Positions 52,640 through 60,271 of a stretch of DNA of 64,000 nt are shown here, in pieces. The notes beneath the pieces are model-generated. The model searched no databases. It was not told the DNA's origin and saw only the letters and a program-made list of their open reading frames with translations. Source of the DNA: Rhodovarius sp. (lineage in GTDB: Bacteria > Pseudomonadota > Alphaproteobacteria > Acetobacterales > Acetobacteraceae). The position numbers and the translations under genes were made by a program. The stretch lies in the NCBI GenBank assembly GCA_025057055.1, contig JANWYF010000134.1, forward strand, positions 2,410 through 66,409, written 5' to 3'. How positions within the stretch are numbered: the stretch's first letter is position 1; each line of letters starts with the position of its first letter.

Positions 52640-54436
52640 TCACGTCTCCCGGTACCAGTCGGCGAGCAGCCAGTGGGTGTTGTCCCAGGCGCTCAGCACC
52701 GGGCGGAGGTTGTTGAGGCTGGCCGAGACCAGCGGGCGGCGCACCAGCGGGATGACATGGTGGCTGCCCACGATCAGGTCGTTCATGCGGATGAACAGCG
52801 CCGCGCGCTTGATCGGGTCGAGTTCGGATTCGGCGGCGCGGTAGGCTGCATCATATTCGGCGTTGCGCCAGCGCACCACATTGCGCCCCTGCCAGGAGTT
52901 GGCGCGGCTGGCAATCTCCCACGACACGAACTGGTTCATGAACCGCTGCGGATCCGCCTGCGGCATGGTCGTGGTGTACATCTGCATATCGGCGTAGAAC
53001 TTCGTGAAGGTGTCCGGGTTCGCCACGTCCGAGGAGAAGAACACCGACGCCGCGATCGACTTGAGTTCGAGGTCGATGCCGGCGCGCATCGCCGCCTGCT
53101 TGTAGATCGCCTGGGTCCGCTGCCGCGGCGCGTTGACCGAAGTCTGGAAGACGAAGCGCAGCCGCACCCCGTCCTTGACGCGCACGCCGTCGCGCCCGCG
53201 CACCCAGCCGGCCCGGTCCAGGATCTCGTTGGCGCGGGCGATGTTGAACTCCCAGCGGGTGTTGGGAGAGCGGAAGCGCGGCGGGTTGTTGAGGAAGTTG
53301 GAGGTGGCCGGCCCGCCGCGGCCGTAGATGAAGCGCTCGAGCGCCGCGCGGTCGATCAGCAGCGCCATCGCCTCGCGCACCGCCGGGTCGCGGAAGGCGG
53401 GGTGCTGGGTGCTGATGTGCGACCGCTCCCCGTCCACCTCGATATTGGGGTCGGTGGCGTTGAGCTGCACGAACTCGACATTGCCGCCTTCGACGATGTT
53501 GACGCGCCCGCGCCCGGCGGCCTCCAGCCGCTGCAGGATCTCATCCTCCACCTGCAGGTTCCAGGCATAGTCGAAATCGCCAGTCTGCAGCACCGCCCGC
53601 GCGGCCGAGACCGCATCGCCGCCGCCCTTGACCTCGATCGTGTCGAAGAAGGGGCGGTTCTCCCGATGGTAGTGGGGGTTGATCTCTCCGCGCAGCAGAT
53701 CGCCCGGGGCGAAGCTGACGAACCGGTAGGGGCCGGTGCCGACGGGGCGCAGATTGGCGGGTGCATCGCGCGCATGGGCGCCGACGAAGTTCTGGAACTG
53801 GTGCTTGGGGATGATCATCCCCGTGCTGGCCACGAAGGCATCGGCCCAGAAGGGGGTGGGGCGTTCGAACTCCACCCGCACCGTGAAGTCGTCCACCTTG
53901 ACGACGTTGACATCGCGATAGGAGCCGCTGGTCGTCGCCCCCACCGCCGGGTGGCGGGAATATTCCCAGTTGAAGATGACATCATCGGCGCTGAAGGGCG
54001 TGCCGTCGTGCCAGCGCACATTGCGCTTGAGCTTCCAGGTCACGCTCCGCCCATCGGGCGAAAGACCCCCATTCTCGATCGAGGGGATCTCGGCCGCCAG
54101 GATCGGAAAGAGCGTCCCCTCAGAGGTCCAGCCCGCCAGCGGTTCGTAGAAGACGCGCGCTGCCTCCTGGTTCGTGGTGCCGACGGCGAAATGCGGATTG
54201 AGCAGGGTGGCGGCCTGCCAATAGAGGATCTTGAGCGCGCCGCCGCCGCCCCGCCGGGTCGGCCGATAGGGCGGAACGGCCTGTGCCGCTGCCGGTGCGG
54301 CACCGCTGATCGCGAGCAGCTGGGTCGCCATCGGCGCGGTGAAGCCAAAGGCCGCCAGCCGGCGCACGAAGCCGCGCCGCGTCAGGCTGCCGCGCTTCAC
54401 GCGGCCGATCAGTTCGCGCAATTGGTCCTCGGTCAT
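52640..54436 (-). CDS. Peptide ABC transporter substrate-binding protein (family 5), Tat-type signal
   Basis: SLTRRGFV twin-arginine motif; WQA.T.LNPH, W.LK..V.WHDG.PF, GTGPY; ATG 54436. Confidence 0.9.
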   Translation of the reverse strand: MTEDQLRELIGRVKRGSLTRRGFVRRLAAFGFTAPMATQLLAISGAAPAAAQAVPPYRPTRRGGGGALKILYWQAATLLNPHFAVGTTNQEAARVFYEPLAGWTSEGTLFPILAAEIPSIENGGLSPDGRSVTWKLKRNVRWHDGTPFSADDVIFNWEYSRHPAVGATTSGSYRDVNVVKVDDFTVRVEFERPTPFWADAFVASTGMIIPKHQFQNFVGAHARDAPANLRPVGTGPYRFVSFAPGDLLRGEINPHYHRENRPFFDTIEVKGGGDAVSAARAVLQTGDFDYAWNLQVEDEILQRLEAAGRGRVNIVEGGNVEFVQLNATDPNIEVDGERSHISTQHPAFRDPAVREAMALLIDRAALERFIYGRGGPATSNFLNNPPRFRSPNTRWEFNIARANEILDRAGWVRGRDGVRVKDGVRLRFVFQTSVNAPRQRTQAIYKQAAMRAGIDLELKSIAASVFFSSDVANPDTFTKFYADMQMYTTTMPQADPQRFMNQFVSWEIASRANSWQGRNVVRWRNAEYDAAYRAAESELDPIKRAALFIRMNDLIVGSHHVIPLVRRPLVSASLNNLRPVLSAWDNTHWLLADWYRET

Positions 54437-54613
54437 CGCCCTCTGCTCCCCCGATGGCCTCTCCCGCCTGTGCATGCTGCGCTGCCTCGGCCCGCGGTGC
54501 AACAACGGCGAGAAGGCGGAGGTGGGCAGAGGGGCGAGGGGGGCGGCCTCTGCCGGCGCCATTGCACACCCGGCCTGCCGAAGGAGAGGGCAGGCCCAGC
54601 AGCAGGGGGGAGG

Positions 54614-54642
54614 TTGCCATGCCGCCCGCTCTGACCTATGTC
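54614..54642 (+). promoter_or_regulatory. sigma70-type promoter of tRNA-Glu
   Basis: TTGCCA-N17-TATGTC ending 10 nt before the mature tRNA 5' end. Confidence 0.55.
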
Positions 54643-54652
54643 CCTGCCCGGC

Positions 54653-54728
54653 GGCCCCTTCGTCTAGCGGTCTAGGACGCGGCCCTCTCACGGCTGAAAC
54701 ACGGGTTCGAGTCCCGTAGGGGTCACCA
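54653..54728 (+). tRNA. tRNA-Glu (CTC), CCA encoded
   Basis: GGCCCCT/AGGGGTC acceptor, CGTCTAGCGGTCTAGGACG D arm, CGGCC-CTCTCAC-GGCTG anticodon arm, GGTTCGAGTCC, ACCA end; 76 nt. Confidence 0.96.
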
Positions 54729-55048
54729 ACTCCGATCCGGGGCGGGGTTCGCCCGGCCCGGCCTCTCCTGGCTCCCCCCGCCCTCCCTGGCAGCCTCCGA
54801 TGGCCTGATGGCAGCCGAAAGCCTGTGTTGCCGCACGGCGTCCGGCGATGCAGCGGCCCGGGCTGACCGAGGCGCCGGGCTCAATCGGGCCAGGCCTGCC
54901 GAAAGCTTGCGCATCCCTCGCCCGGCGGCTCGGCGCTCACCTCTTCGCATCCGCGGCAGCGCCCTTGCCCGCGGGGCCCCAAGGGGCGGGGGCAGGGGCA
55001 GGGGCTTGGCCGCGCCGCCGGATCCGACGCTGCGGCAGGGGCGGCCGA

Positions 55049-55918
55049 TCAGCCCCGCATCGCCAGCGCCACCCCAGCCAGGATGCAGAGGAGGGCAGCC
55101 CCCTCCCGCCAGCCGAAGGCTTCGCCCAGAAACATCGCCGCCCCGGCCACCCCGACCATGGGCGCGAGCATGGTGCCGATGCCGGCCAGGGTGGCGCTGA
55201 CGCGCTTCAGCGCCTCAAACCACATGAGATAGGCGAGCCCGAGCGGCACCACCGCCATCCAGACCAGGAAGAACCAGCCGGCGGCGGAGAGGTCGCGCCA
55301 GGGCTGCGGCTCGCTGAGCAGGCCGAAGACCAGCAGCGGCGCGCAGCCCAGCCCGACCTGCCAGGCGGCGGCCGCGAGCGGCGGCAGGGGCAGCGGGCGG
55401 CGCTTGGCCAGGACGGTGCCGAGCGCAAACAGGAAGCCGGCCGCGAGCAGCAGCCCCATGCCCGGCAGCTTCTCGAGCCCCAGGGCGATGCCGCGCCCGC
55501 CGAAGAGCACCAGGACGCCCGCCAGCGCGAGCACGAGCGCCGCTGCGCGGCGGGGGGTGGGTACTTCCCCCAGGACGGGCCAGGCGAGGAGCGCGGTCCA
55601 GACCGGGGCGGTATAGGCGAGGATCGCCGCCTCCGCCGCGCCAAGCCAGAGCAAGCCGATGGTCGCAAAGCCCATCCAGGCCATGACGTTGAGCAGGGCG
55701 GCCAGCGCCAGGCGCGGCCAGAGCGCCCAGGCCACCGCCAGGCGCTGCCCCGCCGGCCAGGCGAGGGCGGCGAGCATCACCCCCGCCGCCACCCCGGCGA
55801 CACCGCGGGCGGTCATAGGCGGCAGCTCCTCGAGCAGGAGCTTGAGCATCGGCCAGTTGCTGCCCCAGGACAGCGCAGTGCCGAAGACCAGCACCGCGCC
55901 GAGGGCCTGCCCCGTCAC
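55049..55918 (-). CDS. DMT/EamA family transporter
   Basis: Ten TM segments, W.SNWP, A.ILAYT.P.W...LAW..LGE duplication, P.VGV..A..FLGE. Confidence 0.88.
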   Translation of the reverse strand: MTGQALGAVLVFGTALSWGSNWPMLKLLLEELPPMTARGVAGVAAGVMLAALAWPAGQRLAVAWALWPRLALAALLNVMAWMGFATIGLLWLGAAEAAILAYTAPVWTALLAWPVLGEVPTPRRAAALVLALAGVLVLFGGRGIALGLEKLPGMGLLLAAGFLFALGTVLAKRRPLPLPPLAAAAWQVGLGCAPLLVFGLLSEPQPWRDLSAAGWFFLVWMAVVPLGLAYLMWFEALKRVSATLAGIGTMLAPMVGVAGAAMFLGEAFGWREGAALLCILAGVALAMRG

Positions 55919-57155
55919 CGCGTGGGACTTCGAGGAAGCGGATCAGCGCGGCCATATCCTCGGGGTTGCCCACGGTCTGCACGGGCATCCGGGTGCCAGG
56001 GGTGACCACGTCGGGGCCGCGGGTGAACAGATCCGCCACTGTCTCCGGGGTCCAGATGATGTCACCGCGCGCCAGCCGCTCGGAATAGGCATAGCCCGGC
56101 ACGCTTCCCATCCGCCGGCCGAAGAGGCGGTGCAAATGCGGCCCGGCCATGGGCGGGGCGTCGGGCGTGAGCGCATGGCAGGCCTGGCAGGCGCGCCAGA
56201 CCCGGGCGCCGTGCGGGTCCACGCCCTCCGGCAGGGCGGTGGTCAGCACGGGGCTTTCCGACAGCGGCCGCCCGGTTTGCGCATCCCAGCGCCGCACTTG
56301 GCGATCCGCCCCGCCGGTCCAGAGCGTGCCGTCGGGCGCGAAGGCTGCGGACCAGACCGGCAGGCCCGGCCCCTGCAGCGTGCGCAGCAGCCGCCCGGCT
56401 CGCCAATCCCAGATGCCGACATCGCCATCGATGCTCGCCGCGGCCAGCAGGTCGAGATGGGCGGTCAGCGCCACGATCGGCCGCGGCCCGGTCGAGAAGG
56501 CGCGCAGCTGCCCGCCCTCCAGCACCCGGATCGTGCCATCCACCGTGCCGATCGCCAGCGCTTCCCCGCCGAGCGGCGCCAGGGCCGCGATCGGCAGGCC
56601 GAACTCCGCCTTCACCGTCCCCTCGGGCCAGAGGCGCAGCGTCCCGTCTTGCCCTCCGCTCACCAGCCCCTCCGAGGTGAAGGCCAGGGCGGTGATGGCG
56701 CCGCGATGGCCCTCGAAGATGCGCACGCCGCCCTGCCCGTCCCACAGCCGCACGGTGGCGTCAAAACCGCCCGAGGCCAGCCGCTGCCCATCGCTCGCCA
56801 GCGCGGTGACCGGCCCCTGATGCCCCTCCAGCACCAGATCCGGTTCATGGGCCCCGGCCGGGGGCCAGATCGCGATCCGCCCATCCTCTCCGCCCGAGGC
56901 CCAGCCCCCGCCCGGGATCTGGGTCAGGGCCTCGACCGCGCTGCGATGCCAGCGCGAGACGGCCAGCGGCCTGCCCTGGGGCGTCCAGACGATGACCGCC
57001 TGGTCGAGCCCGCCGGAGGCTGCACCGGCCGTGCCGGCCGCCAGCGCGCGCACCGGCCCGCCATGGGCGATCAGCCCGGCCGGCCGTTCCGGTTCAGGCA
57101 GCTGGGCAGCCGCGGGAATGGCAAGCAGCAGGAGGAGGGAGAGCAGTCGCCGCAT
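55915..57155 (-). CDS. Periplasmic seven-repeat WD40 protein fused to class I cytochrome c (apparent 1-nt frameshift just before natural stop)
   Basis: Signal peptide MRRLLSLLLLLAIPAAA; seven GH..V...SGG.D.....W repeats; CQACH, GPHL, PGTRM; as sequenced the frame reads on to 55215, whereas a TGA at 55915-55917 overlapping the EamA GTG is one base out of frame. Confidence 0.82.
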
Positions 57156-58282
57156 CAGAGAGTCCGCATCAATTCGGCCAGAGTAGCACCGCGCGGGGCC
57201 AGCTGGCGCCAGAGGATATGCTCATCCGGCGCATGGGCGCCGTGGCCCGGGCAGCCCAGCCCGTCGAGCGTGGGAATGCCGAGGGCGGCGGTGAAGTTCC
57301 CATCCGACCCCCCGCCGCGATGCTGCTTGGGCAGGTCATAGCCGAAGCGGGCCGCGATCTCTCGCGCCCGGGCATAGAGGGCGAGGCCCTCGGGCGTTTC
57401 GGCCATGGGCGGGCGGTTGAGGCCGCCTTCGACCGTGATGCTGATGCCATCCTCCTCCCCGGCCAGGGCGCGGATGGCGGCCTCCACCTCCGGCGCCTGG
57501 GCGGGGTCGGCGATGCGGAAATCGACCTTGCAGCCGGCCTCATCGGCGATGACGTTGGGCCTCGTCCCGCCCCAGACCGGTGCGACATTGGTCGTAATCC
57601 CGCGGTCGAGGTCGGTCAGCCCGTGCACAGCCAGGATGACGCGGGCCAGGGCGACGGTGGCGCTGCGCCCCTCGCTCCAGTTGCCCCCGGCATGGGCGGC
57701 GCGGCCGCGGATGGTGATGGTGAAATCCCCCGTCCCTTTGCGGGCGGTGACGCAGGCGCCCTGCGGCCCCCCGGCCGGTTCCGGGATCAACACCGCCGCC
57801 GCCCGGGCCGCCTCGGCCTCGATCGGGGCGCGGCTGGTCGGGCTGCCCACCTCCTCATCCGGGGTCAGCAGCAAGACGATTGGCCGGTTGGTTGGCACGC
57901 CCTGGCGAAGGATCTCGCGCAGGGCGTGGAAGGCGAGGAAGCTGCCGGCCTTCATGTCATAGATGCCGGGGCCATAGGCGCGGTCGCCCTCGATGCGGAA
58001 GGGCATGTCGGAGGTGAGCCGGCCATGATCCCAGACCGTGTCGACATGGCCTGCCACCACCACCGCCGGCTTGTCGGCCCGGGCGGTGCTGCGGGCGATC
58101 AGCGTATCGCCATAGCCGTCCCGCCCGGGCAGCCGCTCGATGACGGCCCCCACCCGGCGGAGTTCGGCCTCCGCGTGGTCGAGCAGACGGTTGACGGCGG
58201 CGGCATCGGTGCTCGGGGTTTCCATCTCGACCCAGCCGCGCAGTTCCTCGAGCAGCCTTTCGGAGCTGCCGATCTCGATCAT
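57155..58282 (-). CDS. M20 family metallopeptidase (carboxypeptidase G2-like)
   Basis: GHVDTVW, GPGIYDMKAG, DEEVGS, EP, AHAG, GGGSDGN, GAHA. Confidence 0.9.
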   Translation of the reverse strand: MIEIGSSERLLEELRGWVEMETPSTDAAAVNRLLDHAEAELRRVGAVIERLPGRDGYGDTLIARSTARADKPAVVVAGHVDTVWDHGRLTSDMPFRIEGDRAYGPGIYDMKAGSFLAFHALREILRQGVPTNRPIVLLLTPDEEVGSPTSRAPIEAEAARAAAVLIPEPAGGPQGACVTARKGTGDFTITIRGRAAHAGGNWSEGRSATVALARVILAVHGLTDLDRGITTNVAPVWGGTRPNVIADEAGCKVDFRIADPAQAPEVEAAIRALAGEEDGISITVEGGLNRPPMAETPEGLALYARAREIAARFGYDLPKQHRGGGSDGNFTAALGIPTLDGLGCPGHGAHAPDEHILWRQLAPRGATLAELMRTL

Positions 58283-58347
58283 GGGGCGGTTTTCCCTTTC
58301 CGGCCTGCCGCTGCTAGATGGGGTCATCCATCCTCAGGGCGAGACGC

Positions 58348-58758
58348 ATGTTCTTCGAAGACCTGTCCATCGGCCAGAGCGCGAGTTTCGGCAAGACCAT
58401 CACCGAGGCCGATGTCCTTATGTATGCCGCCGTTTCGGGCGACACCAACCCGGTGCACATCAACAAGGAGGTCGCCGAGGCCTCGATGTTCAAGGAGCGG
58501 ATCGCCCACGGGATGCTCTCGGCCGGGCTGATCTCGGCCGTGCTGGGCACGCGCCTGCCGGGGGAGGGGACGATCTACCTCGGCCAGACCCTGCGCTTCC
58601 GCGCCCCGGTGCGGATCGGCGATACGGTGGTGGCAACCGTCACCGTCACCGCCCTGGATCCGGCCCGCAAGCGCGCCACGCTGGAGACGGTCTGCACCGT
58701 CGGCGGCAGGCCGGTGATCGAGGGTGAGGCGACCGTGATGGTCCCCTCCCGCGGATGA
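58348..58758 (+). CDS. MaoC family (R)-specific enoyl-CoA hydratase (PhaJ-like)
   Basis: AVSGDTNPVH, IAHGML, PG.GTIYLGQ.L.F.APV. Confidence 0.88.
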   Translation: MFFEDLSIGQSASFGKTITEADVLMYAAVSGDTNPVHINKEVAEASMFKERIAHGMLSAGLISAVLGTRLPGEGTIYLGQTLRFRAPVRIGDTVVATVTVTALDPARKRATLETVCTVGGRPVIEGEATVMVPSRG

Positions 58759-59351
58759 GCGGGCCCAGGCTCAGGCGCGTCTGCGTCTTCTGCGGCGCCT
58801 CCTTGGGGCGGGATCCGGCCCATGCCGAACTGGCCCGCGCCCTCGGCCAGACGATTGGCCGGCGCGGGCTGTCGCTCGTCTATGGCGGGGGCAGGGCCGG
58901 GCTGATGGGCGTCGTGGCCGATGCCGCGCTCGAGGCGGGGGCGGAGGTCTGGGGCATCATCCCCGTCGCCCTGCAGGAGCGCGAACTGCAGCACACCGGC
59001 ATCCAGCACCTCGAGGTCGTACCGGATATGCACACCCGCAAGGCGCGGATGAACGCCCTCTCCGACGGTTTCGTCGTGCTGCCGGGGGGAATCGGCACGC
59101 TGGAGGAGGCGGTCGAGATCCAGTCCTGGAGCCAGCTCGGCTTCCATCGCAAGGGCATCGTCTATCTCGACCGCGATGGCTACTGGGACGATTTCTTCAC
59201 CCTCACCCAGCGCATGGTCGATGCCGGCTATCTCCGCCCCGACCATCGCGCGATCGCCATCCGCGCCCACAGTCCGGAGGAGGCGCTCGATGCCCTGGAA
59301 CGCTGGGAGCCCACCGCCGAACACCGCTGGGCCCAAGGTGCCCGGGCATGA
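58755..59351 (+). CDS. LOG family phosphoribohydrolase (TIGR00730)
   Basis: VCVFCGAS.G, YGGG..GLMG, MH.RK, PGGIGTLEE. Confidence 0.92.
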   Translation: MSGPRLRRVCVFCGASLGRDPAHAELARALGQTIGRRGLSLVYGGGRAGLMGVVADAALEAGAEVWGIIPVALQERELQHTGIQHLEVVPDMHTRKARMNALSDGFVVLPGGIGTLEEAVEIQSWSQLGFHRKGIVYLDRDGYWDDFFTLTQRMVDAGYLRPDHRAIAIRAHSPEEALDALERWEPTAEHRWAQGARA

Positions 59352-60271
59352 TCGTCCATTCCGGCTGGCAGGGCCTGCCCGCCGAGGCGCGCGGGGCGAC
59401 CGTGGCGCTCGGCAACATGGATGGTGTTCACCTGGGCCACCGCGCGGTGCTGGCGGCGGCGCACCAGGCCCGGCCTGACCTGCCGCTTGCGGCCCTGACC
59501 TTCGAGCCGCATCCGCGCGAGTTCTTCCGGCCCGAGGATCCGCCTTTCCGCCTGACCCTGCTGCCGGCCAAGGCGGCGGCGCTGGCCGCGGCCGGGGCGC
59601 GGCTGTGCTATGCGCTGCCCTTCGATGCCGAACTGGCCGCGATGTCGGCCGAGGCCTTCTTCCGCGAGGTGCTGATCGCGGGGCTCGGCGTCCGGCACCT
59701 CGCCTGCGGTCCGGATTTCGCCTTCGGCTACCGCCGCGGCGGCAACCTCGCCTTCCTGCGCGCCGCTGCCGAGGCTGCCGGCATCGGCCTGTCCGTCGTG
59801 CCGCATCTCACGGACGCCGAGGGGATCGTCAGCTCCACCCGCATCCGGCGGGAGCTGCAAGGCGGCTATCCGGAGCGCGCCGCCGCCCTGCTCGGCCGCC
59901 CCTGGACGGTGCCCGGCATCGTCGAGGCCGGCGACCGCCGCGGGCGCAGCCTCGGCTTTCCCACCGCCAATATCCCGCTCGGCAGGCATCTCGAGCCGGC
60001 CCGGGGGGTCTATGCCGTCACGGTCACCCTCCCCGACGGGCGGGAGTTCCCGGGCGTGGCGAATATCGGGCGCCGCCCCACGCTGGGGGGGGATCCGGTC
60101 TCGCGCATCGAGGCCCACCTCTTTGGCTTTGGCGGCGACCTCTACGGGCAGGAGCTGCAGGTGGCGCTGCGCCATTTCCTGCGGCCGGAGCGCCGCTTTC
60201 CGGATCTGGCGGCGCTCGCGGCCCAGATCCGCGCCGATGCCGAAGAGGCGCGGCGGCTGCTCGGCGCCTGA
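59348..60271 (+). CDS. ribF: Bifunctional riboflavin kinase / FAD synthetase
   Basis: LGNMDGVHLGH, TFEPHP, VSSTRIR, GR.LGFPTAN, GVYAV, G.RPT, EAHLF, FLRPERRF. Confidence 0.95.
   Translation: MIVHSGWQGLPAEARGATVALGNMDGVHLGHRAVLAAAHQARPDLPLAALTFEPHPREFFRPEDPPFRLTLLPAKAAALAAAGARLCYALPFDAELAAMSAEAFFREVLIAGLGVRHLACGPDFAFGYRRGGNLAFLRAAAEAAGIGLSVVPHLTDAEGIVSSTRIRRELQGGYPERAAALLGRPWTVPGIVEAGDRRGRSLGFPTANIPLGRHLEPARGVYAVTVTLPDGREFPGVANIGRRPTLGGDPVSRIEAHLFGFGGDLYGQELQVALRHFLRPERRFPDLAALAAQIRADAEEARRLLGA

Follow-up and report, generated by a model that had tools for sequence, protein, structure and literature searches.

A predicted periplasmic WD40 propeller-cytochrome c fusion from an Acetobacteraceae contig and its probable association with FDH3-type formate dehydrogenase

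Here we describe a locus at positions 55049-58282 of a stretch of Rhodovarius sp. DNA (contig JANWYF010000134.1, assembly GCA_025057055.1), which is 64,000 nucleotides (nt) long and is called the window; its positions supply the coordinates given below, except where another contig or locus is named. According to the list of open reading frames (ORFs) of the window, three genes lie side by side on the minus strand: an M20 peptidase, a WD40-cytochrome c fusion and an EamA transporter. The first, an M20/M25/M40 metallo-hydrolase gene (57155..58282, minus strand), encodes 375 amino acids (aa) from the ATG at 58282, as also called in the near-identical assembly GCA_033577735.1, and its ORF is possibly longer, starting from 58327. 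The second, the WD40 propeller-cytochrome c fusion gene (55915..57155, minus strand), has a corrected product of 413 aa, its frame being broken in the window by a 1-nt deletion. The third, an EamA/DMT-family transporter gene (55049..55918, minus strand), encodes 289 aa from a GTG start. The stop codon of the M20 gene and the start codon of the fusion gene overlap by one base (CTC TGATG CGG), and the three-gene minus-strand locus with a TGATG junction, described in an earlier sequence-only reading of this DNA, is thereby confirmed.

The fusion protein begins with a Sec-type signal peptide, MRRLLSLLLLLAIPAAAQ (residues 1-18, 57102..57155, minus strand), which we read from the sequence; a hydrophobic N-terminal leader is present throughout the family. 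It is followed by a seven-blade canonical WD40 beta-propeller (residues ~31-300, 56256..57065, minus strand), recognised both by Pfam (PF00400, E=3.9e-33, 112.9 bits against a Pfam cut-off of 27) and in an AlphaFold2 model. The model, based on 47 homologues, has a mean pLDDT of 87 and a pTM of 0.80, with values >90 over most of the propeller, and presents 28 strands arranged as seven four-stranded blades (residues 35-300) together with a helical haem domain (residues 314-411). Foldseek comparison with the PDB gave TM scores of 0.83-0.88 (target-normalised) to seven-blade WD40 structures, the top matches being all WD40 scaffolds, and the propeller matches from Foldseek and from the PDB profile search include PkwA (5yzv), 2ymu and the WRAP-T seven-blade designs. 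A two-domain relative combining propeller and haem was sought in the PDB with both methods, and generic WD40 propellers were all that was found. Structure prediction and Foldseek search, which the earlier reading had proposed as a check, thus establish the seven-blade WD40 fold and provide no two-domain relative.

The C-terminal part is a class I (mitochondrial / c2 / c552-type) cytochrome c domain (residues ~314-413, 55915..56216, minus strand), with the haem motif CQACH at 56175-56189 and the axial Met390, within PGTRMPV, at 55986-55988. The CQACH-type motif and the axial Met, located ~60 residues past the haem motif, are invariant in the family. When searched alone against the PDB, the haem domain retrieves cytochromes c of mitochondria, c2 of Blastochloris and c552 of Paracoccus (E 8e-16 to 1e-13), with the axial Met aligned. 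Its match to the NCBIfam Cyt550 domain (E=3.6e-11) is the sole NCBIfam match giving the family any name, and no curated family name for the fusion was found in NCBIfam.

Conservation in the wider family is highest in the haem domain. The invariant residues of the propeller correspond to structural WD40 positions (the GH His, the turn Asp and Trp), and the wider-family alignment reveals no obvious pocket or cofactor site among them. The fusion protein has no Pfam match to pyrroloquinoline quinone (PQQ) or cd1 families at E<=0.01. A cofactor-bearing propeller enzyme of the cd1 or PQQ type was considered and rejected, given the seven WD40 blades and the missing PQQ/cd1 match. The features listed in the earlier reading, namely a Sec signal, seven WD40 repeats forming one propeller, and a c2-like haem domain with CQACH and a distal Met, are all recovered here, and its statement that no PQQ or haem d1 signature is present agrees both with the Pfam result and with structural matches that are WD40 only. 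As judged from its sequence, the fusion protein is a periplasmic protein consisting of one canonical seven-blade WD40 propeller and a c2-like mono-haem domain.

The same architecture defines a family: an N-terminal signal or anchor, a single seven-blade WD40 propeller and a C-terminal mono-haem class I cytochrome c, in a total of about 400-460 aa. The window protein aligns over its full length with members from many bacterial families at 33-75% identity, and these are named in databases as 'c-type cytochrome', 'WD40 domain-containing protein' or 'hypothetical'. Our search of the literature retrieved nothing relevant, either on a fusion of WD40 and cytochrome c or on a fourth gene of FDH3.

Gene context outside the Acetobacteraceae connects this family with a formate dehydrogenase. 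We searched a class sample of 401 alphaproteobacterial genomes, found full-length fusion relatives in 35, and examined 20 distant loci (31-44% identity) from other alphaproteobacterial families. In 13 of the 20, the genes for the alpha, beta and gamma subunits of FDH3 lie directly upstream of the fusion gene, encoding a 958-aa molybdopterin subunit with a Tat signal, a 198-aa Fe-S subunit and a cytochrome b subunit of 340-480 aa. The beta subunit matches NF038355 (FDH3_beta, E=1.7e-105) and the gamma subunit TIGR01583 (formate-DH-gamma), both over the cut-off, and the alpha subunit shows a full-length match of 1446 bits to FdhA of PDB entry 9VAP; on this similarity we take FDH3 alpha to be a genuine formate dehydrogenase. 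Gamma was matched in 12 loci; in 11 of them it shares the strand of the fusion, mostly with no more than roughly 100 nt from the gamma stop to the fusion. Among the 34 carriers of the class sample other than the window's genome, the fusion lies <4 kb from FDH3 beta in 22 and ~10 kb from it in 5 more.

In another 6 of the 20 distant loci the fusion stands beside genes for a 700-aa polyferredoxin, a 245-aa protein and MoeA-type proteins, and FDH3 beta is located ~10 kb away in five genomes with this type of neighbourhood. The gene for the ~700-aa polyferredoxin and the divergently oriented one for the 245-aa protein, which lacks any family match, occur as a conserved pair in the vicinity of FDH3 and the fusion (loci L097, L098, L100-L102 and L116 of our set; C205:6186-8841 in the window's own genome), often accompanied by MoeA or MoeA-like genes. 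From its sequence and context, this pair looks like an undescribed accessory module.

Two further loci show variants of the gene that follows FDH3 gamma. In L118, which is FDH3-positive and has no fusion, this gene encodes a stand-alone, anchored c2-like cytochrome of 168 aa (L118:3914-4420, minus strand), which is homologous to the haem domain of the fusion and ends in ...AYLKVITR. In L125, a WD40 copy of the family (L125:6094-7014) follows FDH3 gamma; the genome search did not detect this copy, which is apparently truncated or frameshifted. We also observed that FDH3 gamma (e.g. L107:6458-7627) carries an N-terminal extension of ~150 residues which is absent in E. coli FdnI/FdoI; this extension is a candidate for the place where the propeller docks.

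The presence of the fusion in genomes follows that of FDH3. In the class sample the fusion occurs in 35 genomes, FDH3 beta in 59 and both in 33 (Fisher p=8.6e-30), and the two fusion carriers without FDH3 beta are both metagenome-assembled genomes (MAGs) of 80-82% completeness. In a sample of 151 Acetobacteraceae genomes, 23 encode a full-length fusion and 34 FDH3 beta: all 23 carriers possess FDH3 beta, compared to 0 carriers among the 117 genomes lacking FDH3 (p=3.3e-19). These carrier counts are lower bounds, because the search filter misses some copies, such as that in L125; an exhaustive search of representative genomes was dominated by giant multi-WD40 proteins, with ~5 true family members in the top 150. 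The signal is very strong all the same. As the fusion and fdh3 are mostly on different contigs or far apart in the Acetobacteraceae, the association with FDH3 does not rest on linkage. The window's own genome conforms to this pattern: it encodes FDH3 alpha, beta and gamma together with MobB and MoeA on contig C127, and has the polyferredoxin module on C205.

From these comparisons we consider it rather probable that the window's fusion protein is a relocated member of an uncharacterised WD40-cytochrome c family that accompanies FDH3, and that it acts as a propeller-docked carrier from FDH3 to the cytochrome c chain. As far as gene content and context indicate, the family itself adds an optional component to periplasmic molybdo-formate dehydrogenases of the FDH3 type and is present in roughly a tenth of Alphaproteobacteria. 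The propeller would serve as a platform for protein-protein docking and keep the haem domain at its presumed partner, FDH3 or the membrane subunit of FDH3. The haem c would accept electrons from formate oxidation and, in the direction we suppose, hand them to a high-potential cytochrome c that is part of the respiratory chain. In the window's genome and in most Acetobacteraceae the gene would have moved away from fdh3 and, in one small sub-clade, the moved gene would have landed between the genes of an M20 peptidase and an EamA transporter.

Within this scheme we infer that the haem is the functional core, as the electron carrier of FDH3, and the propeller a docking module. This assignment is based on the superior conservation of the haem domain, on the cytochrome-only gene that follows gamma in L118, on structural neighbours of the propeller that are scaffolds only, and on the description of Fdh3 of M. 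extorquens as cytochrome-linked (PMC6520949).

Several observations weigh against our proposal. The window's fusion is on contig C236, between M20 and EamA and not in the fdh3 cluster, which is on C127. In the Acetobacteraceae most copies of the gene show no linkage to fdh3 either, and adjacency is typical of the family, not universal. The overlapping junctions couple the fusion gene of the window translationally to the unrelated M20 and EamA genes. The fusion is absent from 26 of the 59 FDH3 genomes (~40%), for which reason we regard it as optional for FDH3. The p-values of the phyletic comparison ignore shared ancestry. Finally, enzymes of the FDH-N type normally reduce quinone via the gamma subunit, so that an extra cytochrome c is not obviously needed.

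Two other roles have to be weighed against that of an electron carrier. The fusion could be needed for FDH3 as a periplasmic assembly, stability or anchoring factor or as a redox sensor, the haem being structural or signalling. The same co-occurrence and adjacency data fit such a role, as do the optional nature of the fusion and the fact that WD40 propellers are typically scaffolds. On the other hand, the haem domain is the best-conserved part and is close to the mobile carriers c2, c552 and mitochondrial cytochrome c, and the cytochrome-only version in the same operon place in L118 suggests that the core function lies in the haem and not in the propeller; we therefore judge this role unlikely.

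It is likewise improbable, in our view, that the fusion is a general periplasmic c2-like carrier serving some other respiratory or photosynthetic partner and sharing only lineage and gene islands with FDH3. This would agree with the similarity of the haem domain to general carriers and with the Acetobacteraceae gene, which is mostly unlinked from fdh3 and often monocistronic. However, co-occurrence is strict in this family of bacteria even though the genes are unlinked (23/23 carriers with FDH3 vs 0/117 genomes without it), and only 2 of the 342 FDH3-less genomes of the class sample, both incomplete MAGs, contain the fusion.

A further alternative concerns the reading frame. As written, the window has no stop codon at the expected place in the middle ORF, which continues to 55215 in an alternative EamA frame and so reaches 646 aa. 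Alignment to L001 places a single-base deletion at 55925..55926 (minus strand), where a G is missing from the coding strand after GTC, three codons before the stop; without this base the in-frame TGA is lost and the ORF reads through. The G is present in a contig of GCA_033577735.1 that shares 99.8% identity with the window across 18 kb, and it is the only indel between the two over that length. This contig encodes a 413-aa fusion ending in ...FLEVATR*, whose TGA overlaps the EamA GTG as GTGA, and the 413-aa version is also found in the protein database. Logan contigs from three independent hot-spring metagenome runs (X1, X2 and X3) all have an extra C behind 55925, and none supports the deletion. 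Since the sister assembly and the three runs carry the base, the true fusion product has 413 aa, and we attribute the absent stop codon of the window to a one-base error in assembly or to a rare variant.

The 'restored' GTGA junction of fusion and EamA in the sequence-only reading depends on putting one base back, which the sister assembly, the three runs and the conserved ATR end justify. In run X2 the deletion site lies in a bubble of tiny contigs; these several small contigs suggest that strain heterogeneity confused the assembly at the junction. We also note a G/C polymorphism at 55914, which changes codon 2 of EamA between Thr and Arg and makes two differences within 12 bp at the junction.

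The window and its assembly do read as a cytochrome with a 234-residue C-terminal extension from the alternative EamA frame, and we consider it very unlikely that this 646-aa protein is genuine: the extra base is present in the sister assembly and in three independent runs, the C-terminal ATR* is kept across the family, the X2 bubble is typical of strain variation confusing an assembler, and long spurious ORFs are expected at 74% GC. A programmed frameshift, or any real C-terminal extension into EamA, was rejected on the basis of the sister assembly, the three runs and the ATR end of the family.

The neighbouring genes bear on the last alternative. The M20 protein matches PF01546 (E=1.2e-29, 104.1 bits, cut-off 24.6) and the M20_dimer family PF07687 (E=4.9e-16, 59 bits); its best NCBIfam match, NF005678 / PRK07473, has E=1.5e-95 and falls under the cut-off of that model. 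The protein, a relative of CPG2 and PRK07473, is cytoplasmic and has no signal peptide. The EamA protein contains two repeats of PF00892 (E=4.6e-40, 137.5 bits). Because stops and starts overlap, M20, fusion and EamA are probably co-transcribed, with no shared pathway implied by the sequence comparisons; a consensus scan of 54400-58500 for promoters and terminators returned no match, which is uninformative at 74% GC. A search for RNA runs that contain this stretch gave none.

To describe how stable this arrangement is, we scanned species-representative genomes and obtained 403 loci encoding fusion relatives, the best 80 of which are all in the Roseomonas/Rubritepida part of the Acetobacteraceae. 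Neighbours were clustered for 81 related loci; the counts are approximate, as tblastn-anchored gene picking misses some small genes. The same-strand upstream neighbour is M20 in 7 of 77 loci and the downstream neighbour EamA in 4 of 78, all in the closest sub-clade. A close M20 homologue (>=67% identity) occurs in nine loci (the L001-L009 group and L028), adjoining the fusion in the L001-L009 group and not in L028, and an EamA homologue is near the fusion in four (L001-L004). Most other copies are flanked by unrelated genes on the opposite strand, the commonest in the 81 loci being a UbiA prenyltransferase (19), an alpha/beta hydrolase (17) and a small membrane protein (13). A Rhodovarius relative has M20, the fusion and then a divergent LysR gene; in Humitalea the gene before the fusion belongs to Amidohydro_3 and three TctC genes come after; and in Falsiroseomonas bella the fusion lies between a creatininase gene on the opposite strand and a glycosyltransferase gene.

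As the neighbours vary across relatives, the M20-fusion-EamA arrangement is a lineage-specific accident. The earlier reading had suggested a pathway in which a product of the M20 amidase is exported by EamA for redox conversion at the propeller, and had named homologs in contexts without M20 or EamA and the lack of a conserved pocket as the observations that would speak against it; the first is what we find, and among the invariant propeller residues no obvious pocket is seen. With relatives in unrelated contexts the functional inference fails. That the three genes nonetheless form one pathway, the propeller-cytochrome oxidising or otherwise handling the exported M20 product, is hardly credible: the junctions do overlap (as TGATG and, with the missing base put back, as GTGA) and the M20-fusion junction is retained in the closest relatives L001-L009, but M20 and EamA are rare as neighbours, the Rhodovarius relative keeps the M20-fusion pair with a divergent LysR gene instead of EamA, elsewhere the fusion has neighbours such as the Amidohydro_3, opposite-strand creatininase or UbiA genes, and the propeller conserves structural WD40 positions only, without a cofactor motif.

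The surroundings of the three genes contain two further gene blocks. Located 3' of EamA, after a gap of ~600 nt, are genes for a peptide/nickel-type ABC importer, comprising a family-5 solute-binding protein (52640-54691, minus strand) and, continuing to about 48000, two permeases and two ATPases. In its longest ORF the binding protein has a lengthy N-terminal extension that includes a Tat-like motif, RRGFVRR. The M20 protein as a partner of this transporter was considered and rejected, the pairing being inconsistent in relatives. On the other side, a MaoC dehydratase - LOG (lysine-decarboxylase-like) - RibF block at 58318-60271 (plus strand) serves as a synteny anchor: the fusion gene adjoins this block in several genera of the Acetobacteraceae, with or without M20.

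If our proposal of a propeller-docked carrier for FDH3 holds, the fusion depends on FDH3, as carriers in the Acetobacteraceae always have FDH3 with the genes mostly unlinked. Previous work stated that the activity of Fdh3 was never assayed because its electron acceptor is unknown (PMC2991311). The proposal, if true, would identify this long-missing physiological acceptor for assaying FDH3. FDH3 is one formate dehydrogenase of methylotrophs and of many other Alphaproteobacteria, and a propeller-docked cytochrome c would be a testable candidate acceptor. The assignment would also be among the few functional assignments for periplasmic canonical WD40 proteins in bacteria, where the WD40 propeller fold is mostly cytoplasmic. 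More tentatively, a WD40 propeller may have been recruited to the periplasm as an adaptor that tethers a c2-type cytochrome to FDH3, giving a formate:cytochrome c oxidoreductase that would deliver electrons straight to the high-potential chain, instead of or besides the quinone pool. For a high-GC window such as this one, tight gene overlaps did not mean a shared pathway, and an apparent read-through was a single-base assembly problem.

Among the closest known systems is the enzyme with which the fusion family travels, FDH3 of Methylorubrum (Methylobacterium) extorquens AM1 (fdh3ABC, NF038355), with the homologous Shewanella-type FdhABC (9VAP FdhA). Its alpha subunit is Tat-exported and of the Mo-bisPGD type, its beta subunit is a 198-aa 4Fe-4S protein and its gamma subunit a cytochrome b, and it is described as a three-subunit enzyme; no WD40-cytochrome c component was found in the FDH3 literature that we searched. 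Transfer of electrons from a formate dehydrogenase to its own c-type cytochrome, as proposed for the fusion, is known from the periplasmic FdhABC3 of Desulfovibrio, whose cytochrome is multihaem and c3-type, has no propeller and bears no sequence relationship to the fusion.

NirS cytochrome cd1 and the quinohaemoprotein alcohol dehydrogenases resemble the fusion in being periplasmic and in combining a beta-propeller and a c-type haem in one polypeptide. Their propellers, however, are eight-blade and non-WD40 and contain a catalytic haem d1 or PQQ, whereas that of the fusion is a seven-blade canonical WD40 propeller with an intact structural tetrad and no significant PQQ/cd1 family match. Apaf-1, which is among the generic WD40 matches in the PDB, pairs WD40 propellers with mitochondrial cytochrome c in a non-covalent, cytosolic and apoptotic setting; this is an analogy only, the similarity being generic and giving no evidence of descent.

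The haem domain itself closely resembles cytochrome c2, Paracoccus c552 and mitochondrial cytochrome c, with which it aligns over its full length and shares CxxCH, GPxLxGxxGR and the axial Met in PGTxM. The sequences differ after the axial Met, where the fusion has MPxQ and the others M(I/S)F(A/x)G. The known proteins are free or lipid-/helix-anchored single domains, whereas the haem domain of the fusion is placed behind a 270-residue WD40 propeller, from where, judging by these likenesses, it probably does the same job as c2 and c552, namely periplasmic one-electron shuttling.

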